Assembly (NCBI GenBank): GCA_030656555.1
Contig: JAUSPN010000040.1
Coordinates: 375-64,374, forward strand
Length of the DNA stretch: 64,000 nt
Direction of reading: 5' to 3'
From: Candidatus Desulfaltia sp.
Lineage (GTDB): Bacteria > Desulfobacterota > Desulfobacteria > Desulfobacterales > ETH-SRB1
Below the pieces are notes generated by a model. The model worked only from the letters and a program-made list of their open reading frames with translations. It made no database searches and had not been told where the DNA came from. Within the stretch, counting starts at the first letter, position 1. Each line of letters begins with the position of its first letter. A program made the position numbers and the translations under genes. Positions 8,876 to 62,275 of the stretch are shown in pieces.

Positions 8876-10152
8876 ATGACAAATCGCAACTGTATTATTG
8901 TCTGTATAACGATATTTATGTCATTATTTCTATTTAACCTGAATGCCCACGCATTAAGCCCTGAAACCGAACTGCTTTTGAAGCTTCTTGAAAAAAAGGT
9001 GTTATAACAACAGATGAGGCAACTGCCCTGAAGCAAGAGATTGAAACCGCTGCTCCAAAAGCAACAGACAAAGAAACAATCAAGGCGGAAATCAAGCGGG
9101 AAATCACAGACGAGCTGAAAACCGATGGAGGCCCGTTAGCAGGGATTCAGGACAATTTAACCATAAGCGGGAAGGTTGAGGTTGATTACCAGTATCTTGA
9201 TCACAGGGACAGAACAAACAAAAACAGCGACGGCACGTCTGATCTTTATGCTTCGACAATCGAGCTGGGGATAGAAGCCCTGATTAATGAATCAACCAGG
9301 GCCAATATTGTTTTAAAGGCAGAGGATATCGATAAAAGCGATACCACTGCAAATAACACTGACCCGAGCGATCCTGACAAGGTATTATTCGACGAAGCAA
9401 CTATAACCATATTTAATCAGGAAAAATGCCCGTTTTATGCGGTTTTGGGAAAACGTGGCCAGCCGTTCGGAAATTTTTTCACACACACAATAAGCGACCC
9501 TGTCACAAAAAGCGCATACGAAATTGCGACAACAGGGGTTACCGTAGGATATGCGCCAGCGGATCTTTATGGCCTGGATCTTTCATTTACCCTGTACAAA
9601 GGAGAAAAGTTGATAGGTCAGGTAGCGGGGATCGGAAGCACAAGTGCCCCTGTCCGTAATACAACAAGCCATGTCGAAACCGATGATGTGGAATCATACA
9701 TAGCGAACCTGTCTTTGCAGCCTATAGAGGACCTGACAATCGGGGCTGCTTTCAACTCAGAACCGGGATATGAGAGCCGTAATAATACTGTAAATGCATT
9801 TGCGGAATATTCACTGGCCGGGTTTACCCTTGACTGCGAGTATTTTGCCGCCGTAAAGAGAGAAAAATTCTCAGATAACAAAACATACAAGGAAAAAGCA
9901 TGGGCAGCCGGGCTGGCCTATAAGATCACAGAGCCTCTTGAAATTGCGGCCAGGTATGAAACCTTTGATAATGACCGTGACACAGACTTAGACGGAGACA
10001 TCGATTACACTCTAACTGTAGGCGCAAACTATGAAATACTTGACAGCGTTACACTCATGGGTGAATATCGCAGGCTTCAGGAAAAGGCTACGGATTCATC
10101 TTATGAAAAAACAGCCAATGAATATAACCTGAGGATGGGGATAGAATTTTAA
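8876..10152 (+). pseudogene. Outer-membrane beta-barrel porin (LbtU-like), frameshifted at an A7 run
   Basis: Signal peptide from ATG 8876. One extra A at 8991-8997 gives LEKKGVITTDEA and a continuous 425-aa frame into ORF 9445-10152, which ends in the barrel-type C-terminus MGIEF. Confidence 0.8.
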
Positions 10153-10161
10153 GGAAAACAT

Positions 10162-10773
10162 ATGCATATATCTGAAGGAGTATTATCACCGGCCATACTT
10201 ATAGGCGGCGCGGTTGTCACAATGGCGGGCGTGGCTATCGGCTTGAAAGGGGTTGACAATAAAGATATCCCAAAGATGGGGATACTTTCAGCAGCCTTTT
10301 TCGTAGCCTCACTTGTCCACGTTCCTGTGGGGCCCGCATCCGTCCACATGATATTAAACGGCCTCCTTGGTTTCATCCTCGGCTGGAAGGCCTTTCCGGC
10401 AATACTGGTTGCTCTGGGGCTACAGGCCCTGCTTTTTCAGTTTGGCGGCATTACGACTCTCGGGGTAAACACCATGAACATGGCCCTTCCTGCCGTAATA
10501 TGCTACTACCTGTTCGGATGGAGCACAAAAAGCAGCATAAAACAATCTGTATTCATAACCGCTGCTTTTGCTTCCGGCTTTTGCGCAGTCCTTGTTTCCA
10601 GTATACTTGTCGGGTTTTGCCTGTATCTTACCGGAGAGGCCTTTTCGCCTGCGGCAAAACTTATAGTTGCAGCACATTTGCCTGTAATGATAATCGAAGG
10701 AATCGTTACAGCCGCCTGTGCGGTGTTTCTCAAAAAGATAAGACCGGAACTTTTGGAGGAAATAAATGTTTAA
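10162..10773 (+). CDS. cbiM: ECF Co/Ni transporter substrate-binding S component
   Basis: N-terminal MHISEG metal-binding motif; SVHMILNGLLG; GGITTLGVN. Confidence 0.93.
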   Translation: MHISEGVLSPAILIGGAVVTMAGVAIGLKGVDNKDIPKMGILSAAFFVASLVHVPVGPASVHMILNGLLGFILGWKAFPAILVALGLQALLFQFGGITTLGVNTMNMALPAVICYYLFGWSTKSSIKQSVFITAAFASGFCAVLVSSILVGFCLYLTGEAFSPAAKLIVAAHLPVMIIEGIVTAACAVFLKKIRPELLEEINV

Positions 10774-11458
10774 AAAAAATCAAAATCTTTGCAAAGTGAT
10801 CCCGTTTTTATATCTATTCCTGTTGATTCTGCCGATAACTTTTCATACAACGGCTGCTTTTGCGCACAAGGTTACTATCTTTGCCTGGGTTGAAGGGGAT
10901 ACAATATACACTCAAAGCAAATTCAGCAAAGGAAGAAAAGCCAAAGGATCGCTTGTTACGCTTTTTGACATGGAAGGAAACAAACTTCTTGAAGGCACAA
11001 CCAACGAAAAGGGGGAGTGCTCCTTTAAAATCCCCCAAAAGACCGGGCTTAAGGTTGTCTTAAAGGCTTCTATGGGCCATATGGCTGAATGGAAAATACC
11101 TGTAGAGGAAATCGCTGCAACACAGGCATCACAAACCAAAACTCCCGAAGCCGGCGTAATAAGCGATATTATATCGCCATCAAACCTCAGCGGCAGTGAA
11201 GCAGACGCTAAGCAGCCGATTTCCGGCCCTGCCAGCTTGCAAAAAGAGGAAATCAGGCGCCTGATTGATGAGTCCCTGGATCAAAAGCTCAGCCCTATTA
11301 TAAATATGCTGGCGGACTCTCAGGATCAAGATCCTGGAATAAGCGAAGTAATGGGCGGCATAGGTTATATATTCGGCCTTGTCGGCGTGGCCCTCTATTT
11401 TACAAACCGCCGCAAAACTCAAGAGGTCAGAGGTCAGAGGTCAGAGGTCGAAAAGTGA
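10766..11458 (+). CDS. Ni/Co transporter accessory protein (CbiL/NikL-like)
   Basis: AFA-HKVTIFAWVEG, GHMAEW, C-terminal TM GGIGYIFGLVG; between cbiM and cbiQ. Confidence 0.7.
   Translation: MFKKNQNLCKVIPFLYLFLLILPITFHTTAAFAHKVTIFAWVEGDTIYTQSKFSKGRKAKGSLVTLFDMEGNKLLEGTTNEKGECSFKIPQKTGLKVVLKASMGHMAEWKIPVEEIAATQASQTKTPEAGVISDIISPSNLSGSEADAKQPISGPASLQKEEIRRLIDESLDQKLSPIINMLADSQDQDPGISEVMGGIGYIFGLVGVALYFTNRRKTQEVRGQRSEVEK
11422..11449 (+). repeat. Perfect heptamer repeat (AGAGGTC)x4 in the gene's 3' end
   Basis: agaggtcagaggtcagaggtcagaggtc encodes the tail EVRGQRSEV. Confidence 0.9.
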
Positions 11459-12210
11459 TCGAAGAAATCAACGGCTATGATTCTTTTATTCAACGTCTTG
11501 ATCCTCGCGTCAAGATTATTATAGCCATTCTTTTTTCCGTTTTAGCAGCCGTGTCAAACCGGTTTGTGGTTTTAATTGCAGCCCTTGCCGTAAGCATTAT
11601 TATACTGTTTTCTGCCGGAATAAAGATAAAAGAGGTGTTCAAACGACTGATTCCCGTAAACACTCTACTTGTTTTCCTGTGGCTTTTTCTGCCCTTTACA
11701 TTTGCCGGTGAGCATCTCTTTTCAATCGGCTCTCTGACCGGAACACGTGAAGGCGTGCTGTTTGCTTTTAGAATAACCATTAAATCAAATTCAATCATGC
11801 TGATGCTGATCACGCTGGCTGTATCAACCCCGATATTTACTATAGGCCATGCCATGCATCAATTGGGTATGCCCCAAAAACTTGTGCACCTTTTCTTCTT
11901 TACATACAGGTATCTCCATGTAATATATAAAGAATATACTCGCCTGGTCAATTCCATGAAAATTAGAGGTTTTAAACCAAAGACAGATTTGCATACCTAT
12001 AAAAGTTACGCTCATCTGGTTGGAATGCTTCTGGTAAGGGGTTTCGACCGGTCGCAGCGGGTTCACAACGCCATGATTTGCCGCGGCTTCAGGGGAAAGC
12101 TTTACAGCCTGAGCAGCTTTTCAATCAGCAGAGCGGATATAATTGCATTTATTCTGATGGCAGGCTTTATCCTGATACTTGGAATACTGGAATGGACAAA
12201 AACAACCTGA
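11455..12210 (+). CDS. cbiQ: ECF transporter T component
   Basis: LDPRVK, FTYRYL, MKIRGF, AMICRGF. Confidence 0.92.
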   Translation: MIEEINGYDSFIQRLDPRVKIIIAILFSVLAAVSNRFVVLIAALAVSIIILFSAGIKIKEVFKRLIPVNTLLVFLWLFLPFTFAGEHLFSIGSLTGTREGVLFAFRITIKSNSIMLMLITLAVSTPIFTIGHAMHQLGMPQKLVHLFFFTYRYLHVIYKEYTRLVNSMKIRGFKPKTDLHTYKSYAHLVGMLLVRGFDRSQRVHNAMICRGFRGKLYSLSSFSISRADIIAFILMAGFILILGILEWTKTT

Positions 12211-50921: not shown

Positions 50922-52091
50922 CTAAAATGGCGGTACAATGCTGAATCCGAGAAATCCCACGCTCGTGTACCGAACGCCCACATAGAGCGCCAATACTATA
51001 AAAAGCCTCTTAAGCCAGACTTCCGGAAAGTACTTTGAGGTACGGGGACCGATCATGGAACCAACAAAGATACCGATAAGCTCAACGCCGATCAACGGCC
51101 AGTAAATCATTGTGCCCTTGACGACCATATAGGTGAAGATACTCACTACCATCCCCACCAATACAGTAAGGGCTGATGTGCCGGCCACTATGAACATGGG
51201 CAGGCCCGCGACACTCGTCAGGAACGGAACGAACAGGAAGCCGCCACCCACACCGATAAACGAAGCTATCATTGCGATAAAAAAGCCACCAAGCACAGGT
51301 ATGATGGGACGGAAACTGAACTCCACTCCATAGAAAGTAAAGACTACCCTGCCAAAGCCAAATTTTTTGATCTTAACACCACGTTTTTCATCTTTTTCAG
51401 CTATATCCTTTCCCTTTACGCTTTCTTCAAAGGCCCTGGCTGCTTTTGAAGCTTCCTTCCTTTTTCTCTGCCCCGCTGGAAGCGTTTCCCACAAGAGAAC
51501 AAATGCTACGGCAAACACGCAAAGCCCAAAGTAGCCTATATACGCTTTCAATGAAATCTTGCCTGCTGTCAGGATTGGCACCAGGATGCTGCCCCCGACA
51601 GCGCCAATGGCCAGGCATATGCCGAGAGGCAACACGAGTCTGCCCATTCTATAGTAATTGAGGCTTGAGATGGCCGCGCTCAAACCTACCAGCCACTGGT
51701 TCGACACCCGGATGCTGTCTGTTATCAGTTTGTTAAGGGTTGGTGACGTCTCCTTAAAGGCCTTGCCGTAATTGGCCAGTCCAAAGATCGTAATATGTCC
51801 AACGCCTGCCATGATCCCTCCAAAAGCGCCTACTGTAGAAAAAATCCAGCCTACCCATATGGCCCAAAAAAAGGCTAAAATTAAACTGGGTGATGGCGCT
51901 CCTGGAATCCCTAACCATCCAGGCTTGGCCTTCGGATCAATCTGGCCCTTTTCGGTGCCCTGGGGTGTTTTGGCAATAGCCTCGGTGAGTCTATCCCCGG
52001 CCGCATGAGCTGAGGCAGCAATCAGAATCGGCGATACAAAGAATACGCTTAGAACAAAGATCGCAAAAAATACTTTCAAGTTTTTACTCAT
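50922..52091 (-). CDS. TauE/SafE (TSUP) family exporter
   Basis: Signal-like N-terminus; STVGAFGGIMAG, IGVGGGFLFVPFL, AGTS; multiple TM helices. Confidence 0.88.
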   Translation of the reverse strand: MSKNLKVFFAIFVLSVFFVSPILIAASAHAAGDRLTEAIAKTPQGTEKGQIDPKAKPGWLGIPGAPSPSLILAFFWAIWVGWIFSTVGAFGGIMAGVGHITIFGLANYGKAFKETSPTLNKLITDSIRVSNQWLVGLSAAISSLNYYRMGRLVLPLGICLAIGAVGGSILVPILTAGKISLKAYIGYFGLCVFAVAFVLLWETLPAGQRKRKEASKAARAFEESVKGKDIAEKDEKRGVKIKKFGFGRVVFTFYGVEFSFRPIIPVLGGFFIAMIASFIGVGGGFLFVPFLTSVAGLPMFIVAGTSALTVLVGMVVSIFTYMVVKGTMIYWPLIGVELIGIFVGSMIGPRTSKYFPEVWLKRLFIVLALYVGVRYTSVGFLGFSIVPPF

Positions 52092-52502: not shown

Positions 52503-53906
52503 TTAATTTCTTGCACTTTTTCTAAATTTAGCTGATTTAATATTGCATTTTTTCATAATCTGTTGCGAAGATTGCTTTTTCAGCTCGCATAGTTGGGCAG
52601 CTCTTGTTACATTGCCGCCTGTTTTCTGCAAGGCTTTAGTTGCATAATTAATATTAAAATCTTGCAAAACCCGCTGTTTTGCCTTTCGATATAGAAGGTC
52701 TTCCTCTTTTTTAAAAGAAAAGCCCTTTTGTTTAGAAGCAATATCCCATCCAATATCAGAAACTTTAACTTTATCGCCAGGCGCCATAACCACCGCTTTC
52801 TTTATAATATTTTCTAATTCCCTTACATTGCCGTTCCAGTCGCTGTCTAAAAATAGCCCCATTAGCTCAGGAGATAGTTGCTTATTTTTCCTGTTAAACT
52901 TTGCGCAATATTTTTTCAGGAAAAATTCAGTCAAAAGGGGTATATCCTCTTTTCGTTCCCTTAATGGAGGCATATTTATGTCAACCACACAGAGCCTGTA
53001 ATAGAGGTCTCTGCGAAATTTGTTTTCCTCCATCCTAACCTTTAAGTTGATATTCGTAGACGCAATAATCCTTACATCAACATGCATTGTCTTAGTACAG
53101 CCAAGTGGTTTAAATTCTTTGTCCTCCGATATCTGCAAAAGTTTTGTCTGGACAGACGGACTGATGTCTCCAATTTCATCAAGAAAGATAGTGCCTCCAT
53201 CAGCCTCTTCAAAAAGTCCTTTCCTGGTTTGAACGGCATTGGTAAAGGCTCCCTTTGTGTAACCAAAAAGTTCACTTTCCAATATGTTTTCCGGGATAGT
53301 AGGACAGTTTATCCGAACATATGGTTTGTTACTGCGATGACTTAATGCATGTATGGCCTTTGCGGCAAGATTCTTGCCGGTGCCTGAGTCTCCGGTAATT
53401 AACACGGCAACATCGGTTTTGCTGATTATCTGTATAGTATCATACACCTTCTGCATGCATAGACTGGCACCAACAAAGTTCTGAAAGGTTTCCTCTTCCC
53501 TGATACGCTCTCGAAGGTTCAGATTCTCTCGCAGTAAGCGGCTCCGTTCCAAAGCCTTTTGCAAAAGATGTATGAGGTGGTCGTGATCAAACGGTTTGGT
53601 AATAAAGTCGTAAGCCCCTTTCTTGATCGATTCCACCGCAACTTCTATAGCGCCGTGCGCTGTCATCATGATTACCGTGAGCCATTGGTCGAGCTGTTTG
53701 ATCCGTTCAAGAAGTTCAATCCCGTTCATGCCCGACATGCGTATATCCACAAGGGCGAGATCAAACGGTTTTTGTTCAACAAGGCGGAAGGCCTCTTCAC
53801 CGCTTAAAGCTGTTTCGATCTCGCAGTCAATATGCTGTGGGATAGATCTACTCAGAAGCTTAAGCATATCTATTTCATCATCAACAATTAAGATTCTTGT
53901 TTTCAT
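52503..53906 (-). CDS. Sigma-54-dependent response regulator (NtrC family)
   Basis: REC domain, GDSGTGKNLAA, ESELFG, GAFTNA, WNGNVRELEN, HTH. Confidence 0.94.
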   Translation of the reverse strand: MKTRILIVDDEIDMLKLLSRSIPQHIDCEIETALSGEEAFRLVEQKPFDLALVDIRMSGMNGIELLERIKQLDQWLTVIMMTAHGAIEVAVESIKKGAYDFITKPFDHDHLIHLLQKALERSRLLRENLNLRERIREEETFQNFVGASLCMQKVYDTIQIISKTDVAVLITGDSGTGKNLAAKAIHALSHRSNKPYVRINCPTIPENILESELFGYTKGAFTNAVQTRKGLFEEADGGTIFLDEIGDISPSVQTKLLQISEDKEFKPLGCTKTMHVDVRIIASTNINLKVRMEENKFRRDLYYRLCVVDINMPPLRERKEDIPLLTEFFLKKYCAKFNRKNKQLSPELMGLFLDSDWNGNVRELENIIKKAVVMAPGDKVKVSDIGWDIASKQKGFSFKKEEDLLYRKAKQRVLQDFNINYATKALQKTGGNVTRAAQLCELKKQSSQQIMKKCNIKSAKFRKSARN

Positions 53907-55888
53907 AGTGTTGTATTGTCATAAACAGGAAGCGTAACAATAAATGTCGCTCCATTTCCAGGCTCACTTTGCACAGAAATTTCACCGTTATGTTCCTTAA
54001 TAATTCCATAGCTTACTGAAAGGCCAAGGCCTGTGCCCAGACCGGTCGGCTTGGTAGTAAAAAATGGATCAAATATCTTGTTGATAATATTAGTCGGAAT
54101 GCCGGAGCCGCTATCTTCAACGATAACACATACCCTGTTATGGTTTGGCGCAAATGTCTTAATAGTAATATCTCCGGATTCTGATATTGCCTGCCTGGCA
54201 TTCATTAAAAGGTTCATAAAGACCTGTTTGAGTTTTTCCTCGTCTCCAGTGACAGGTTGTATGCTTTCATCAAGAACTGTTACAAGACTTACATTGTCAA
54301 GTTCGAATTGATGTCTGATAACGGCAATTATATTTTTGATGGTCTGGTTTATATTTATCGCTATTTTTTGTGTTTCCGTTTTTCTGGCAAAATTCAGCAG
54401 GGCTTCAACAATTATTTTGCAATTACATGTTTGCTTTTCTATTGTTTTAAGGTCTTCAAATACTTGAGGACCTTTAGATTCACCACGCATCAAAAGCTGT
54501 GTGTATCCAAGAATCAGGCCGAGCGGATTATTGATTTCATGGGCTATTCCCGCAGAAAGCTGGCCAAGAGAGGCCAGCTTATCGGCCTGAAGCAACTGCT
54601 GCTTCATATCTTTCCATATAGTGATATCCTTTATTATCCCTTCATGTCTAAGTATCTGACCTGTTTCGTCTTTTTGAGCCGTGCTGCTGAAAAGAGCTTG
54701 AAGTTCACAACCGTTTTTTGTCTTTAATTTATATTCCATGTCTTTGATAAATCCTTTAGACCCGATTTCATTAAGCATGTTTTCATAATGCTCAGTCTCG
54801 ACAAAGAGATCGGCCAGATTCACGGATTGAAGGAAGTCTTCTCTGGTGTCATAGCCAAGCATTTCAATGCCGGCCCGGTTGATATCTATAAAGCGGCCAT
54901 GGTTGCCGGCTATAAATATCAGGTCTATAGAGCCTTCGAATATTCGGCGATACCTCTTTTCGGATTTTTCTATAGTTTCTGCTGATTGTTTTAATTGCGT
55001 TATATTGTTTTTCAAGGTCAGGGCCATGGCATCAAAGGCCTCTGCCATTTCCTGGATCTCGTCACCCGATAGCCTGGAATATACCTCACAGGTCCGGCAG
55101 CTAATAATTTTTTTTGCATATTTACCGTCAATGCAATTCGGGCACATGGTGCCCGCAAGATACCAGCAGCGCCTGCGCCTGTCACCATAAGCAGAGCATG
55201 CCTCTCTGTTGCAGCTCATGATTTCCCAGCAGTTTTTGTTCAACAATGGGGCTGTCTGGATATCCAGATCGCCGCTTAATGCTTTTTCAGATGCCTGGCG
55301 CAGCTTTTTTACTCTTTTTGTAACCTGATCGGCAAAACCTGCCCCAACAAGACCGGCAATAAGTATTGTCAATCCGGTTAATAGAAAGATCGTTCCCAAT
55401 AGATCTTTGATCGTTTGTTCAATTCTTGTTCTTGAAAGACCCAGCCGCACAGTTCCAAGCCGGTGATTTTCTATGAACACAGGCGCAGCAACATCGTAAA
55501 TCAGATATTCTCCGGTATCCAGGAGCCTGATGCTGTAATCCTGATCTTTTGAAACACTGTTCGCTTTTTTAAGCTCGACTGGAAAGCCTTCCTGAAATGT
55601 GTGAGCCAGGGTCTGTCCATTTTGATCAAGTATAAATGCGTATGGAATATCATCGCCTGAATCAGAGACTTCATCGATCAGATCCTTCATGCGAAGGAAA
55701 TCCACAGCCAGAATCGGGTCCTGGGCTCGGGCGGCGAGGTTTAAGGCAATGGATATTCCTCTGTGTTTACACTCGGTCGATAATGCTTCTGCAACTATTA
55801 TTCTCACAGACAGAGCCATCAGCAGCCCTGAGAGCAGAACTATGGAAATGATGCCGGTGTAAACTTTTCCTCTAAAGCTAAATTTCAT
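53903..55888 (-). CDS. Membrane histidine kinase: HAMP with 8-Cys insert, PAS, HisKA, HATPase
   Basis: Two TM helices; CWEIMSC...CWYLAGTMC...CRTC; HEINNP, MNARQA, DSGSG, GTGLG. Confidence 0.92.
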
Positions 55889-55893
55889 TTTGC

Positions 55894-56820
55894 TTATCTA
55901 TCCAGATCAATTCCCAACCCTGTCAACAGGTTTCTAACAGAATTAAATTCCGAATCTTTAGAGTGAGCAACACCTGTGATATCGGCCATATCGAGTATTT
56001 TTCTATGTTCAGGGTTATCATAATTTAGCCTCAAGAGAGCATCTCTTATCCTGCCGACAATTTCCGGGTCGAGTTCTCGCCGCGAAGCATATACCCAACC
56101 AGGATACCATTTACTGTGTGCAACAACCCTGATCTGACCTATGTCGATCTTGTCGGCCACAACATTCAGCGTCCCTTCCCGAATGGAGCCTATGTCATAT
56201 TTGCCCGCATATACGGCAAGGACCACTTTTTCCTGTTTACCACCCGGACCTGGAGAAAAGGCGATTTCAGCAAAGTCTTTTTTGGTAATGCCGTGGTCAT
56301 AAAAATGCCCCAACGGATAAAGATATCCACCGGCAGATGATGGATCAACAGCAATCCAGCGCTTGCCTTTGCAATCTTCAAGCGTTTTTATCTTCTTATT
56401 GTCAGAGCGGCATATGATCTGTCCTCTAAAGTTTTTCTTGCCGTAAACTTCTATCACCTGCGCAAAGGCGCCGGCTCCACAGCGATGGGCAATCTTTACG
56501 TAAACACAGGGATTGGAAAACGAAATATCTATCTTGCCCTGCTCTACCATCCTCATGTGTTCGTCAAAGGTGTCAGGAAATACCTGTTTAATGTTAAGCC
56601 CTGTTTCCTTTTTAAGATACTCTATCAGCAAGTAATGTCTTTGATAGGAAACAGTGTGTGAATATTGCGGCAGATAGGCATATGTAATCGCATTTTCTGC
56701 CTCTTTTACATATACTGCTTCCCGTTTGCTCAGGTCAATTTTTTGAACCAATTCGTCTTCAAAGCAGCCACAAAACAAAAAGTTTGTTAATAAAAGTATT
56801 ATTGAAATCCCTTTTTTCAT
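55894..56820 (-). CDS. PhnD/SsuA-like periplasmic oxyanion-binding lipoprotein
   Basis: Lipobox-like LFCGC; YLPQYS, FSNPCVY, DPSSAGGY, YDIGSIRE; start placed at ATG 56820. Confidence 0.85.
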   Translation of the reverse strand: MKKGISIILLLTNFLFCGCFEDELVQKIDLSKREAVYVKEAENAITYAYLPQYSHTVSYQRHYLLIEYLKKETGLNIKQVFPDTFDEHMRMVEQGKIDISFSNPCVYVKIAHRCGAGAFAQVIEVYGKKNFRGQIICRSDNKKIKTLEDCKGKRWIAVDPSSAGGYLYPLGHFYDHGITKKDFAEIAFSPGPGGKQEKVVLAVYAGKYDIGSIREGTLNVVADKIDIGQIRVVAHSKWYPGWVYASRRELDPEIVGRIRDALLRLNYDNPEHRKILDMADITGVAHSKDSEFNSVRNLLTGLGIDLDR

Positions 56821-57112
56821 AATTATTATCCGTTGAACTGCAATGGTGAGCAAATTAAACAGTTTCTATGCAGAATATGTCCAAATGTCAAGATGATTGA
56901 CCTCATGGTGCAATTTTTATATTGCAGAACAATAGTATTATTTTAGCATTATGTATTTCATTAATATCATAGGATAAATATTTACTATCCTCTTTCAACT
57001 GTCACTGTAATATTGCATTCAAAACCTAATTTATAAAACTATTTTCAATACATATCATAAAATTAGCGTATAACCTACTGTAATAGTAATATAAATCACG
57101 CATGCCAACAAT

Positions 57113-57128
57113 CGGCACTCTTTTTGCA
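57113..57128 (+). promoter_or_regulatory. Sigma-54 -24/-12 promoter for the oxidoreductase operon
   Basis: CGGCACTCTTTTTGCA (GG-N10-GC), 50 nt before the ATG. Confidence 0.72.
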
Positions 57129-57178: not shown

Positions 57179-59977
57179 ATGCAAGACAGTAAATCAATAA
57201 AGGCAACGGCAAAGGCGCTTCAATTTCTATCCACCTTGTATCGTGACGAAATACCTCTTGATTTAGTAAGCATGATGCAAAAAGCCGATTTTACAGAAAA
57301 GCTTTCCGGCGCTGCAAAGGAATCAGGTGCCGGCATTTTTGAGGAAGCTGTTTCTCAGATAACCTCATTTTTGAACGCCGGCAACAAAGAAAAGGTTTAT
57401 AAAGAACTAAGCTACGAGTATGCTGATCTATTCCTGAACGCCGGGGCAAACCCGGTTTTCCCCTATGAATCCGTTCATGTAAGTAAAGAACCGGTTGTAA
57501 TGCAAGCGCCTGTTTTCGAACTGCGCAAGGCTTTTTATAAGGCCGGCGTACACAAATCTGAAGACTACAAAGATCTTGATGAGCACATTGCCGTGGAGAT
57601 AGAATTCCTAAGATATCTTCTGGACATGGAAATGACAGACAAATACACCGAATTTTTCAAAGACAGGTTCTTAGCCTGGGTGCCCTCTTTTTGCGAACAG
57701 CTTGAAAATTGCGCTCAAACCGATTTCTACAAAGGCCTGGCCAAACTTACCCGGGCGGTTATTGAGTGTTCCATGACTACCCTGTCTGAATCTGCAGGAG
57801 ATGCTGAAAAAGCTATAAATAGTTTAGCTGCTTCTGTAGGCGAGCTGAATTTAGATTCAGGATATGTTACCCTAACTGAAGGATCTGTTGAGCCTGAACC
57901 GGCAAAGAATATCCCGAGCCATTGTTACACCTGCGGCGCTCTTTGCGGAATGGTGGCAAACCTAAAGGACGGTATACTTGTAAAAACTTCCGGCCTTCCC
58001 GGAGATCCCAAGGGAGGCGGAAGGCTCTGTCCCAAAGGAGCTTCCGCAAACAAACATCTCTACTCCCCTTACAGATTAAAAAGCCCTATGATAAAGGAAA
58101 ATGGTCGTTTCCGCAAGGCAAGCTGGGATGAAGCCCTGGATAGAGTGGTCCAGGGAATTAAGAGCATTGAGCAGGGTAAACTTGGCTATTTCAGAGGTAA
58201 TGACTATGTAAACTGGATACATGAAGCCCTCTTTGACCATCTCGGCTGCCCCAAAGGCACTCACAGGACAATGTGCGACAACTCCAACCGCATGGCAAAC
58301 GAGCATAATTTAAATGACAAACGCCCCTGGATAAACTATCAAGAATCGGATTATATTATTCATTTTGGGATAAATGAACTCGCAACATCAATCGGTCAAC
58401 GCAAAACGGCCGAATTTAGAGAGGCGATCAAAAACCGTGCAAAACTTGTTGTCTTTGATCCGAGAAAATCCGAAACAGCTTCTTCCGCAACTGAGTGGAT
58501 ACAGATAAAACCGTCAACAGATGGCGCCGTGGCAATGGCCATGTGTTATGTTATCATTAAAAATGATCTGTATGATAAAGAATTTGTGGCCGACTGGACT
58601 TACGGATTTGAAGAATTTAAAAAGAGAGTTTTAGGAGAAGAGGATGGCGTTGCCCGCACCCCTGAGTGGGCCGAAAAGATAAGCGGCGTTCCAGCCAAAA
58701 CCATTGAGCGTATTGCTGTTGAATTCGCCGGCTCTAAAAATAAAGGCGTAATCTCGTGGGCCGGAGTTGCCCAGGGGCCAAACTCAATGTATGCCACAGC
58801 CGCTATTCAGGCATTAAACGGTCTCTGCGGCGCCTTTGACGCGCCAGGCGGCCCTTCACTGCCTTTTAAACGCAAGCTGAAGTCTGCCTGGGGGGAGGGC
58901 CAGGAAAAACCGCCAAAGACACCAGCCCCCAAACTCGACAAATTTGGCCTCTGGTCAGGCTGGGCGCCGGCAAACATGTTGGCCGATGTTGAAGCTGGAA
59001 AGCTTAAAGGGATGATCACATATTTTGGCGATCCTGTATTATCAGCCGGCAACCAGGAAGCCATCACCAAGGCTATTGAGATGATGGGGTTTAATGCAAT
59101 TATCGAGGCTTACATGTGCAACACAGCTCTCCTCTGCGACGTTATTCTCCCTGATGCCACATGGATGGAGCAGGCACAGATCAAACCGGACTGGCTTTAC
59201 GACGCCTTTATCGGCTACTATGCCGAAGTGGTAAAGCCGATGTACAACACAAAGCCCATATGGAAAATAATTGTCGAGCTGGCCGGCAAACTAAATCTTG
59301 GACACTTCTTCCCATGGGAAAACATCGAAGAGGCATTCCGCAATCAGATGGCAGGTCTCCCATGGTCTTTTGATGAACTAAAAGAAAAAGGATTTATTAT
59401 CACCGACGAAGCTGAATATTATAAATATAAAAAGTGGGGCTCACTCAACCCACCTGAAGGTTATGGATCATCAGGTAATACAAAAACCGGAAAATATAAC
59501 TTCCTGAACCCAGTGGCCCGGGAAAAAGGCATAGACCCGCTTCCTGACTATAAAGAACCGGATAAAGAGTTCCAGCCGGATGAAGAATATCCCTTTATCT
59601 TCGGCAACTTCAGAGTTCTTGGGCACGAACACTCTTCAACATTCAACAATTACTATCTCATGAAGCAATATAGCACAAATCCACTCTGGATCAATATGCT
59701 TGACGCTCAGAAACTGGGAATAACCGAAGGGGACAGGGTAAAGCTCAAGTCTCCATGGGGCGAGGTCGATATGGTGGCCAACCCAACATGGCGCATTATG
59801 AGCGGAGTTCTGGCAACTGCCGGAGGTTTCGGCCATATCCGGGGCATAGAGGGTGATCCAAAGTATCCGCAGTTCGGCGGGGTAAACACTCCAGGCATTA
59901 TGAAGCCTAACACAACCGAAGAAATCGGCGGCACCCCCCTGCGCAAGTATATAAAAACCAAAGTTGTAAAATTATAG
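57179..59977 (+). CDS. TorD/DmsD chaperone fused to a Mo/W-bisPGD oxidoreductase (PsrA/PhsA-like)
   Basis: PYES and DEHIAVEIEF chaperone motifs; CYTCGALC...LCPKG 4Fe-4S; HRTMCD Cys ligand; DVILPDATWME; molydopterin-binding C-terminal domain. Confidence 0.88.
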   Translation: MQDSKSIKATAKALQFLSTLYRDEIPLDLVSMMQKADFTEKLSGAAKESGAGIFEEAVSQITSFLNAGNKEKVYKELSYEYADLFLNAGANPVFPYESVHVSKEPVVMQAPVFELRKAFYKAGVHKSEDYKDLDEHIAVEIEFLRYLLDMEMTDKYTEFFKDRFLAWVPSFCEQLENCAQTDFYKGLAKLTRAVIECSMTTLSESAGDAEKAINSLAASVGELNLDSGYVTLTEGSVEPEPAKNIPSHCYTCGALCGMVANLKDGILVKTSGLPGDPKGGGRLCPKGASANKHLYSPYRLKSPMIKENGRFRKASWDEALDRVVQGIKSIEQGKLGYFRGNDYVNWIHEALFDHLGCPKGTHRTMCDNSNRMANEHNLNDKRPWINYQESDYIIHFGINELATSIGQRKTAEFREAIKNRAKLVVFDPRKSETASSATEWIQIKPSTDGAVAMAMCYVIIKNDLYDKEFVADWTYGFEEFKKRVLGEEDGVARTPEWAEKISGVPAKTIERIAVEFAGSKNKGVISWAGVAQGPNSMYATAAIQALNGLCGAFDAPGGPSLPFKRKLKSAWGEGQEKPPKTPAPKLDKFGLWSGWAPANMLADVEAGKLKGMITYFGDPVLSAGNQEAITKAIEMMGFNAIIEAYMCNTALLCDVILPDATWMEQAQIKPDWLYDAFIGYYAEVVKPMYNTKPIWKIIVELAGKLNLGHFFPWENIEEAFRNQMAGLPWSFDELKEKGFIITDEAEYYKYKKWGSLNPPEGYGSSGNTKTGKYNFLNPVAREKGIDPLPDYKEPDKEFQPDEEYPFIFGNFRVLGHEHSSTFNNYYLMKQYSTNPLWINMLDAQKLGITEGDRVKLKSPWGEVDMVANPTWRIMSGVLATAGGFGHIRGIEGDPKYPQFGGVNTPGIMKPNTTEEIGGTPLRKYIKTKVVKL

Positions 59978-60020
59978 TATTGAAGGATTTGCAAAAAAAA
60001 TTATATTTTATGGGCAACAT

Positions 60021-60194
60021 TGATGAATTCGTAAAAAGTCCCTTTAGCCTGTCATTTCGAGTGAAACGAGAAATCCTTGTTTCGACGACAGGAGAAATCT
60101 TGCTGCAACCTATTGAAAAGATAAGATTTCTCCCTGTGGTCGAAATGACACAAATGACACATTCGATGAATCCGACTTTTTACGAGTTCATCAA
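60021..60194. mobile_element. MITE-like element: 21-bp terminal IRs around a REP-like palindrome
   Basis: TTGATGAATTCGTAAAAAGTC / GACTTTTTACGAGTTCATCAA; inner GTCATTTCGA/TCGAAATGAC and GGAGAAATCT/AGATTTCTCC. Confidence 0.8.
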
Positions 60195-60225
60195 CATTGA
60201 GTAATTTTGGGAAAAGGAGAACTCT

Positions 60226-61584
60226 TTGAAAAAAGGCAAAACGCTTGTTTTTGTATCATTTATTTTGTTATCATTATTTTTAATGAGCCTCACCCCAATT
60301 GTCTCATTTGCCAGAGCAATTACAATTGACAGCGAATGTATAAACTGTCACACCAACCTGAAAAAACTGATCCGTCTTTGCTGGGAAATCGAAAAAACAA
60401 GGTCAAAGGCGGGTAACTCGGCTGAAACATCCGGTGAAGGATGAGGCGGGCCGCTGGCTCCGTTGGAGTTATACGAAAAGATCTACGTTAATCCCTCTTT
60501 TTTAAAAACCGATCATGGTGAAATTGCATGTGTGACCTGCCACAGTGGAGATCCAAAAAACCCAGACTGGCAAACAGCGCACAAGGGAATCGTTAGAGAC
60601 CCCACATTTCCTGATGCCGGCAATACATGCGGGGAATGCCATGAAGATATTGTTAAAACCGCTAAAAACAGCCTGCATTTTACTCTGGCGCCTTTTAAAA
60701 AGATTATTGAAACACGGGCCAACAAACATGATAAGACTGTTTTTAAAAAGGTCTGCGGGGCAGCAGAAAAGCACTGCAACGCTTGTCACTCCAGTTGTGG
60801 TCAGTGCCATGTAAGCCGTCCTGATTACGCCAAAGGCGGCTTTCTGGCCGGTCATCTCTTCCAGAAAAAACCGTGTATGGACACAACATGTTCGAGCTGC
60901 CACGGCGGTCGGGTGTACGGAGAATTTACAGGTTTAAACGACGGATACCCGGCAGATGTTCATTATGAGAAAAAGGAGATGACGTGCATGGACTGCCACA
61001 CCGGAGAAGAGATGCACGCTGATGCCTCAGGTCTGTCCAGCAGGTTTGATCTTCCCGAGCGACCGGCATGCAAAAAATGCCACCCAAATGTTCTGTCTGA
61101 AAAACCTGAAACCAGGTCGCATAGCATTCACAGAGAGAAGGTTGCATGCCAGGTCTGTCATGTTGTAGCCAATAAAAACTGCTTTGGTTGCCATGTGGGA
61201 ACCGATAAAAAAGGGCTCCCCTTTTACAAGTCCGGAGAGACCAAAATGCTCTTTAAAATCGGACTCAACATAAACAAGACAAACGAGAGGCCCTATAACT
61301 ATGTGGTTTTGCGGCATCCGCCGGCAGATCCGGGGCTGTTTGATTTTTATGTAAAGAATGGACTGGCGGATTTTGATAAGCTTCCGACCTGGAAGCTTGA
61401 TACACCCCACAGTATTCAGCGGATAACCCCGCAGAACAAGACCTGCAATAACTGTCACGGCAATCCCGCACTCTTTTTGCAGGAAAAAGATGTAACCGGA
61501 TGGGAACGTAAGGCCAATGCCGGTGTAATTGTTCCGGACAATAAGATACCGGAACCTGTAAAAGAGGAGGCTGCCAAACAATGA
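60226..61584 (+). CDS. Exported 11-heme cytochrome c with in-frame UGA (probable selenocysteine), 452 aa
   Basis: ORFs 60226-60444 and 60463-61584 share one frame, split only by TGA at 60442-60444; signal peptide; 1+10 CxxCH motifs. Confidence 0.82.
60457..60469 (+). promoter_or_regulatory. Candidate bacterial SECIS apical stem-loop
   Basis: GCTCC-GTT-GGAGT starting 13 nt after the UGA, with G first in the loop. Confidence 0.5.
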
Positions 61585-61682
61585 TGAGTTCATAAAAAGT
61601 TAAATTCATCAGGTGCCAGGGATCAGGTTAAAGTAATTATCTGTTTTATCAAGCTCTTAACACTTAACACATTTCGTAAAAA
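61582..61682. repeat. Composite repeat, sister of 42575-42682 with the core inverted
   Basis: TGATGAGTT..AATTCATCA-GGTG then TCAGGTTAAAGTAATT...TTAACAC. Confidence 0.8.
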
Positions 61683-61693
61683 AGGAGGAAGAA

Positions 61694-62275
61694 ATGAAGC
61701 ACGTTAAAAGGACATTGGTACTATCTATTGCTCTGGTTTTTGTTTTAAGCGGACTTGCCTTTGCAGGATTCGCATACAAGGTAGAAAAGGCTCATATCGG
61801 TGGCGATCTCACACCCTCGGAGGCCTTTGAGATGATCGAAAAAGATCCAGGCCATACCTTTCTGGTTGATTGCAGAACCCGTGCCGAATATCAATTAATC
61901 GGCTACCCAAAAGGGGCCTGCAATATCCCTTTGCAATTCTGGACCGGCAAGTTTGGGGAAAAGGAATATGGAAATGCCGCTAATCCTGATTTTGGCAAGG
62001 ATCTTCTGGCCCGGTTCAATCCAAAGACCGACACATTGTTGTTTATATGCCGGAGCGGCAGCAGGAGCTGCGCTGCATGCAACGAAGCGGTTAAGGCGGG
62101 ATTTGCCGAAAACAAGGTGTTTAATGTAATGGGCGGTTTTGAAGGGGGCAAGGTAAAATGCAAATCAAGCGCTTACTCAGGCCAGCGCAAGCTTGGCGGA
62201 TGGCGCAATGAAGGCCTTCCCTGGACATATCATATGGACAAAAAACTGGTCTATCAACCTGATATCGCAAAATAA
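61694..62275 (+). CDS. Exported single-domain rhodanese
   Basis: Signal peptide; LVDCRTRAEY, active loop CRSGSR, NVMGGFEG, GWRNEGLPW. Confidence 0.92.
   Translation: MKHVKRTLVLSIALVFVLSGLAFAGFAYKVEKAHIGGDLTPSEAFEMIEKDPGHTFLVDCRTRAEYQLIGYPKGACNIPLQFWTGKFGEKEYGNAANPDFGKDLLARFNPKTDTLLFICRSGSRSCAACNEAVKAGFAENKVFNVMGGFEGGKVKCKSSAYSGQRKLGGWRNEGLPWTYHMDKKLVYQPDIAK

Follow-up and report, generated by a model that had tools for sequence, protein, structure and literature searches.

A probable selenocysteine-containing eleven-heme cytochrome c, paired with an exported rhodanese in Desulfobacterota and possibly a reductase of sulfane sulfur

Within a 64,000-nucleotide (nt) stretch of contig JAUSPN010000040.1 from Candidatus Desulfaltia sp. 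(hereafter the window), we found that positions 60226-61584 are a single gene, which encodes an exported cytochrome c of 452 amino acids (aa) with 11 covalently bound hemes and carries an in-frame TGA as its codon 73. Comparison across homologous loci indicates that this UGA is very probably decoded as selenocysteine (Sec), and Sec73 sits in a Gly-rich loop, G-E-G-U-G-G, between heme motifs 1 and 2. We consider an 11-heme selenoprotein that is paired with a rhodanese, and that would reduce sulfane sulfur, to be the best overall explanation of the locus (probability about 0.85); the catalytic role taken by itself is more tentative and is weighed separately below. The features concerned are the following.

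60214-60219, plus strand: Shine-Dalgarno sequence AAGGAG, 6 nt 5' of the TTG start, read from the sequence.
60226-61584, plus strand: coding sequence of the predicted selenoprotein cytochrome c, with TTG start, Sec-UGA at codon 73 and TGA stop at 61582-61584; 452 aa and 11 CxxCH motifs in translation.
60226-60312, plus strand: signal peptide of the secretory Sec type, MKKGKTLVFVSFILLSLFLMSLTPIVSFA (MKKGK...VSFA), with probable cleavage before RA, judged by eye from the translation.
60337-60351, plus strand: heme motif 1, C38-I-N-C41-H42, 5' of the UGA; invariant in 87 of 87 sequences.
60433-60450, plus strand: Sec motif G70-E71-G72-U73-G74-G75, with the UGA at 60442-60444.
60445-61581, plus strand: part following the Sec codon, with ten CxxCH motifs and a beta-rich region at residues of about 316-363.
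60455-60471, plus strand: hairpin resembling a Sec insertion sequence (SECIS), with a 6-bp stem (60456-60461 with 60465-60470) and an apical GUU (or CGUUG) loop.
61694-62275, plus strand: exported single-domain rhodanese with active-site loop CRSGSRS (Pfam PF00581, E = 5.8e-13).

Gene callers report two open reading frames (ORFs) for the cytochrome, of 72 aa and 373 aa. Codon 73 stands in the context ...ETSGEG-TGA-GGPLAPLELYEK, and the same frame stays open up to the stop at 61582-61584. The 72 codons 5' of the TGA contain the sole signal peptide, one CINCH and Cys52 (in the sequence RLCW), and the 379 codons 3' of it contain ten CxxCH motifs and no signal peptide. Attachment of heme to cytochrome c takes place after export, and the ten-heme downstream part, having no signal peptide, could therefore acquire its hemes only as a fusion with the upstream part. 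The original prediction had described just this arrangement, a UGA that splits one 11-heme cytochrome into two ORFs with the signal peptide confined to the first, and a re-reading of the frame, the TGA and all 11 motifs in the sequence and its translation bears it out. A hydrophobic N-terminus precedes the first CxxCH in all homologous loci. A relative of about 93% identity, present on contigs of three other groundwater metagenomes, differs synonymously at 60435 and 60447 and has the same TGA at 60442-60444; since these contigs vary synonymously nearby yet keep the TGA, the codon is not an assembly error.

To examine the conservation of this codon, we compared the window locus with 79 loci from species-representative genomes (47-86% identity), giving 80 loci in all, and, independently, with 401 genomes sampled evenly from the phylum Desulfobacterota. 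A protein search returned 670 homologues, nearly all of about 370 aa, that is, the downstream half alone, so the cytochrome gene is split in annotation everywhere. At the nucleotide level, the Sec column holds TGA in 80 of 80 loci and never TAA or TAG, with a signal peptide and a CxxCH on its 5' side and the motif G-E-G-U-G/A-G around it. In the 401-genome sample, where the family occurs in 43 genomes, every informative match that covers the column (45 out of 45) holds exactly one in-frame TGA. The codon is kept in distant subfamilies as well (matches of 250-380 bits), with the flanks GEG-U-AGAPP or VAG-U-GVSAP. Among the 80 loci, the G, E and G codons 5' of the TGA and the G and G codons 3' of it are invariant in amino acid and use all synonymous variants; this synonymous variation on both sides points to selection on one continuous protein across the stop.

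A different pattern is seen slightly further downstream. Codons +4 to +8 show zero synonymous change among the 80 loci and appear only as GTG, GCT, CCG, TTG and GAG, which indicates selection on the RNA. Across loci these codons fold as GGCUCC-GUU-GGAGCC, and in the window as GGCUCC-GUU-GGAGUU (60456-60470), starting 11 nt after the UGA. Pairing is preserved in 97.8% of cells, compared with 84.2% in shuffles, and none of 500 shuffles reached the observed value. Compensatory changes occur in two adjacent pairs (CG to AU and UA to GC), and the accompanying swap in the peptide from A-P-L-E to E-P-L-A is explained by the stem that is thereby kept. Other subfamilies have a different hairpin in the same place (GGAUCC/GGAUCC, UGGUUCC/GGAACCA and CUCCGCC-GGUCCG-GGCGGAG). 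Established bacterial SECIS elements are short stem-loops that follow the UGA by about 11 nt and have G/U in the apical loop, and the geometry observed here agrees with them. The support for the hairpin comes from the comparison across loci: the 65 nt of the window folded alone have no significant structure (z = +0.92), and Rfam gave no match in 59900-61700.

The host organism has the apparatus to read UGA as Sec. Its genome contains selA (620 bits), two selB genes (380 and 303 bits), a selD (381 bits) that has an in-frame TGA of its own, and two tRNA-Sec genes with anticodon tca. The machinery is partly duplicated, in selB and in tRNA-Sec, and one tRNA-Sec lies directly 5' of the second selB.

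Contigs C31:4036-6069, C31:12070-12996, C95:10709-12601, C75:29706-29803 and C38:11300-12661 of the same genome: loci of the Sec machinery.

Uninterrupted forms of the protein exist among distant full-length homologues. When a 77-column profile across the Sec site was used in an exhaustive HMMER search, 11 cluster representatives with Cys at column 73 were recovered, one being P0162 with GEG-C-GG. With residues 25-100 as query, a word-based search returned no full-length homologue, and neither that search nor the 401-genome sample contained a Cys form among close relatives; the exhaustive search alone found full-length homologues. Column 73 of distant relatives also holds Tyr or His, in a few cases Trp, Arg, Ser or Leu, and scattered others. 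Together, these observations uphold what the original prediction had expected of a selenoprotein gene, namely homologues with TGA or Cys at this column between conserved flanks, sel genes in the genome and a SECIS-like hairpin 3' of the UGA, which proves to be present and covarying across loci. The family is widespread in Desulfobacterota, and its close relatives there have Sec in every copy but one. With 43 of 401 sampled genomes it reaches about one in nine of the sampled Desulfobacterota species, including cultured Desulfosarcina; the carriers are mostly sulfate reducers of sulfidic sediments and groundwater, and dsrAB is present in the host genome. Desulfosarcina alkanivorans PL12 and D. 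widdelii PP31 are among the cultured carriers.

We then considered the hemes and their possible ligands in an alignment of 87 homologous sequences. All 11 CxxCH motifs are invariant or nearly so, as are nine distal His residues (97, 119, 151, 210, 246, 264, 299, 302 and 395). Two further candidates, H183 (kept in 72 of 87) and H364 (78 of 87), are clade-specific and still more variable in distant relatives. In the clade of the window protein all 11 candidate distal His residues are present, so that every heme could be bis-His there. Cys52 is a Cys in only 10 of the 87 sequences, and no other Cys outside the CxxCH motifs is conserved; this rules out the redox pair of Sec73 with the RLCW cysteine that had been suggested earlier. 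The cytochrome matches Pfam PF14522 and PF14537 above their cut-offs. An AlphaFold2 model built without hemes is confident (mean predicted local distance difference test score 82.4, predicted template modelling score 0.80); a Foldseek search with this model against the PDB gave nothing at E <= 0.001, and a sequence-profile search of the PDB with the cytochrome found nothing.

The cytochrome and the exported rhodanese form a conserved two-gene cassette. A rhodanese homologue with an export signal lies directly 3' of the cytochrome in 69 of the 80 loci, at a median gap of 77 nt and with an active-site loop of the form CRSG(S/N)RS or CK(S/T)GGR, and it is the sole conserved neighbour; of the 11 loci that lack it, 4 break off within roughly 650 nt of the cytochrome. 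The two functions are also joined in one protein: P0128, a 715-aa sequence from a metagenomic contig, is an 11-heme cytochrome fused to two C-terminal rhodanese domains, and has Tyr at the Sec column (GEG-Y-AV). At its N-terminus, P0197 has what appears to be part of a rhodanese domain. In a Syntrophaceae-type subclade the cytochrome is longer, and a gene for a membrane protein of the cytochrome b561 type follows it.

The closest functional comparison is MccSep, identical to ExtKL (GSU2937-2936; NCBIfam NF040886) of Geobacter sulfurreducens, a multiheme selenoenzyme described as a polysulfide reductase (Sci Adv 2026, PMC13510729). MccSep is a periplasmic tetramer with five hemes, has its Sec (U325) in a C-terminal immunoglobulin-like domain with the sequence D-G-U-P, contains a His/Cys-ligated heme 2, needs the heme-ligating Cys239, reduces polysulfide and, as a poorer substrate, selenite, and is required for sulfur respiration (PMC13510729). 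MccSep resembles the 11-heme family in being a periplasmic multiheme cytochrome c whose single Sec is encoded by UGA and lies in a loop that contains Gly, in having a SECIS-like hairpin immediately 3' of the UGA, in its annotation as two ORFs and in its occurrence mainly in Desulfobacterota. ExtH, which we take to be a rhodanese, is presumably associated with MccSep/ExtKL in a similar way. The differences lie in the number of hemes (5 against 11), in the Sec, which in MccSep is residue 325 in a C-terminal D-G-U-P and here is residue 73, before heme 2, in G-E-G-U-G-G, and in Cys239, whereas the 11-heme family has no conserved Cys outside CxxCH. The window cytochrome has no NF040886 match at E <= 0.01, nor does the host genome have one, and hhalign of the 11-heme family against eight genome-derived MccSep sequences, one of which carries the published peptide NHAGHSIPDGUPTPNR, gave a probability of 28% over 32 columns around a single CxxCH. 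On these grounds the 11-heme family is not a member of MccSep, and the homology to ExtKL that had been raised as a possibility gives way to functional analogy. The two families also differ in where they occur: among the 401 genomes, MccSep is found in 45 and the 11-heme family in 43 with an overlap of 0 (expected about 4.8, hypergeometric P = 0.0044), and in two genera (g30 and g42) some species have MccSep and others the 11-heme family. This pattern fits non-orthologous replacement.

Based on the gene neighbourhood, the one fusion and the analogy with MccSep, we propose, at slightly less than even odds, that the cytochrome is a periplasmic Sec-dependent reductase of sulfane sulfur. Its substrate would be either free polysulfide or a rhodanese-bound persulfide. 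From a flexible Gly-rich loop, the selenolate would attack the S-S bond of the sulfane sulfur, and electrons from the heme chain would reduce the resulting Se-S adduct, whereupon sulfide would be released. The logic would be that of MccSep, arrived at independently. The electrons would probably come from periplasmic c3-type cytochromes or, in the Syntrophaceae-type variants, probably from the adjacent membrane cytochrome b.

Several observations weigh against this proposal. There is no Cys equivalent to C239 of MccSep, and the chemistry of the 11-heme protein must for that reason differ from it in detail. The Tyr or His at the Sec column of some relatives agrees with a role as metal ligand no less well than with one as nucleophile. 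Of two Cys-type relatives inspected for a rhodanese neighbour, P0162 has no adjacent rhodanese, and P0223 lies at a contig end and is thus uninformative. Moreover, the non-overlap with MccSep is partly phylogenetic, such structure inflating the signal, and the sample is small.

Some of these points would favour another role for the same residue. Sec73 might serve not as a free nucleophile but as the distal axial ligand of a heme (His/selenolate), where it would tune or gate the electron chain, or form a catalytic heme like those of TsdA and SoxAX that oxidizes or reduces thiosulfate, tetrathionate or sulfide. We regard this as unlikely, at perhaps one chance in five. It is attractive insofar as only nine distal His residues are conserved across the superfamily for 11 hemes, H183 and H364 being variable, and no conserved Cys outside CxxCH could act as the counterpart of MccSep Cys239. 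The recurrent residues of the column (U, C, Y and H) are, in addition, all able to coordinate heme iron, and Trp, Arg, Ser and Leu are rare one-base variants. In TsdA and SoxAX, according to work cited in PMC13510729, catalysis takes place at hemes ligated by His/Cys. In this genome, furthermore, a PhnD-like binding protein, a kinase and a sigma-54 activator adjoin the operon. Against it, all 11 candidate distal His residues are present in the window clade, and the G-E-G-U-G-G loop, rich in Gly, resembles a mobile arm more than a fixed ligand. TsdA, SoxAX and DsrJ resemble such an arrangement as c-type cytochromes in which a chalcogen side chain at or on the heme iron does sulfur chemistry; they are di- or tri-heme proteins with Cys rather than Sec, and ligation by Sec73 is here a hypothesis. 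In its boldest form, which we judge equally doubtful, Sec73 would ligate one of the two hemes that lack a universal His and so provide the first natural selenolate-ligated heme. Catalysis would then take place at this heme, in a second group of Se-dependent multiheme sulfur reductases that evolved independently and replaces MccSep in sulfate-reducing Desulfobacterota, the Cys, Tyr and His relatives being ligand-swapped.

A further possibility is a selenoprotein that acts on elemental selenium or on an oxyanion of selenium or tellurium, with the rhodanese as selenium carrier. MccSep also reduces selenite, NCBIfam calls the Geobacter ext cluster a 'selenite/tellurite reduction operon', and the cytochrome has a weak ExtM-like match. 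This match, however, reaches 37.5 bits where the cut-off is 800, for MccSep selenite is a poorer substrate than polysulfide, and the sulfidic sediments and groundwater of the carriers hold far more sulfane sulfur than selenium, so we consider this substrate improbable. The readings of a sulfane-sulfur reductase, a Sec-ligated heme and a selenium or tellurium reductase are not all mutually exclusive.

Explanations that dispense with Sec fare much worse. The UGA could be read through as Trp, Cys or Gly by near-cognate or recoded decoding, and there is one case that would suit this: P0106 (L091:6001-7671), from a Syntrophales metagenome-assembled genome, is the only close homologue without TGA and has TGG (Trp) at the column. 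This protein also has a C-terminal extension with extra CxxCH motifs and a membrane helix, and a cytochrome b561 gene 3' of it. The original prediction had looked to Trp, Arg or Gly in homologues as the mark of a nonsense mutation or read error; this Trp is the sole such case among close relatives, and since the hairpin of P0106 (GGCUCCGUUGGAGCC) is intact, it does not refute the Sec reading. The TGG reflects a very recent mutation or loss, or a sequence error. In the few distant relatives with Trp, Arg, Ser or Leu, too, the single-step variants (TGG, CGA, TCA and TTA) are rare singletons. The genome uses TGA as an ordinary stop, as at the end of this very cytochrome gene; it has the full Sec apparatus, with SelD itself containing an in-frame TGA; and the covarying hairpin with its conserved G/U apical loop at canonical distance, together with Sec-to-Cys replacement in relatives, which is a classical selenoprotein signature, makes readthrough as another residue very improbable.

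Least probable of all is that the TGA is a true stop, by nonsense mutation or as a designed boundary between a 72-aa monoheme peptide and a decaheme protein of about 373 aa starting at a TTG 21 nt downstream, with GAGG within UGAGGNGG as ribosome-binding site: gene callers everywhere annotate the downstream ORF of about 370 aa, the TTG is present 21 nt after the TGA in 79 of the 80 loci and a GAGG-like string overlaps the TGA, but the downstream part would lack the signal peptide needed for heme attachment, the residues between TGA and TTG are conserved as protein with synonymous variation, more than 120 genomes have TGA as the stop without exception, distant subfamilies without the TTG retain both TGA and hairpin, and uninterrupted Cys-containing homologues exist.

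The Sec-containing 11-heme cytochrome is also distinct from the other families to which it could be compared. The 2026 review of prokaryotic selenoproteins lists, among heme-related ones, only ExtKL, the GSU2204 family and an octaheme family, the latter comprising Sec members of the octaheme tetrathionate reductases (PMC13188914). The octaheme tetrathionate reductases (TIGR04315) are likewise multiheme c-type cytochromes that act on sulfur compounds and have selenoprotein variants, but differ in heme number and architecture, and the match covers 70 residues at 25 bits against a cut-off of 375. The best curated-model matches of the window cytochrome are the decahemes GSU2203 (NF041028; 38.7 bits against a cut-off of 325) and DmsE/MtrA (TIGR03508; 32.6 bits against 192.2). 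It is a member of neither and shares generic multiheme packing with both; these families are electron conduits with no Sec at this position. In Wolinella succinogenes, Sud is a periplasmic rhodanese-like polysulfide-sulfur transferase that feeds the polysulfide reductase Psr. A periplasmic single-domain rhodanese working with a periplasmic sulfur reductase is the logic that we propose for the cassette, but Psr is a molybdopterin/Fe-S/NrfD enzyme with no heme or Sec, and the two systems are unrelated in sequence. The 11-heme Sec cytochrome family and its SECIS are not covered by any Pfam, NCBIfam or Rfam model, and we found no description of the family in a full-text literature search, although most subscription journals were outside its coverage and this absence is not proof.

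Beyond the cytochrome and the rhodanese, the neighbourhood in the window is confined to this genome, both in its molybdenum (Mo) oxidoreductase and sigma-54 promoter and in its set of binding-protein, kinase and activator genes. The upstream gene (57179-59977) encodes a PhsA/PsrA-like molybdopterin oxidoreductase fused to an N-terminal chaperone domain of the TorD/DmsD type (residues of about 7-205); the linker showed no twin-arginine motif, and the operon no partner gene of the Fe-S or NrfD type. We rejected this oxidoreductase as a component of the conserved cassette, since none of the other 79 loci contains it and close relatives lie among unrelated genes. The element 5' of it is probably the operon promoter, in this genome only.

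57114-57128, plus strand: sigma-54-type -24/-12 element GGCAC-N5-TTGCA, 5' of the Mo-enzyme gene, read from the sequence.

A sigma-54 promoter directly 5' of the cytochrome is not a feature of the family either, the strict pattern being found in 4 of 73 loci against 2.8% of random windows. Divergent from the element, on the minus strand (52503-56853), lie genes for a PhnD-like periplasmic binding protein, an sCache/PAS histidine kinase and an NtrC-type sigma-54 activator, and a gene for an exporter of the TauE/SafE family is located at 50922-52091. In the 250-nt gap between the Mo-enzyme gene and the cytochrome, 60029-60152 folds very stably (-42.7 kcal/mol, z = -6.9). This dispersed repeat has copies of about 115-124 nt at 92-98% identity on other contigs of the host genome (C63, C94, C35, C32, C78 and C6) and looks like an element of the miniature inverted-repeat transposable or repetitive extragenic palindromic type; a 74-aa ORF at 59980-60204 is probably spurious. 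Beside one Syntrophaceae-type cytochrome, a formate-dehydrogenase-like Mo enzyme is split into two ORFs of 188 and 824 aa (L056:8566-9132 and 9181-11655), which may reflect another Sec-UGA.

Multiheme selenoenzymes were recognized as a class only in 2026, with MccSep of Geobacter. The locus described here points to a second, sequence-unrelated family of multiheme selenoenzymes, with 11 hemes, an N-terminal Sec and no partner Cys. Annotation of its gene is wrong in essentially every genome, where a small orphan ORF precedes a 'hypothetical' or 'sulfurtransferase' protein without signal peptide. NCBI names the truncated cytochromes hypothetical proteins, and the Joint Genome Institute names many of them 'thiosulfate/3-mercaptopyruvate sulfurtransferase', a name that was probably propagated from rhodanese-fused relatives, given that proteins such as P0128 exist. 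If the proposed function is correct, many sulfate reducers, including the partners of methane- and alkane-oxidizing archaea, would carry an unrecognized selenium-dependent route for zero-valent sulfur, which would bear on cryptic sulfur cycling and on the selenium need of these bacteria.

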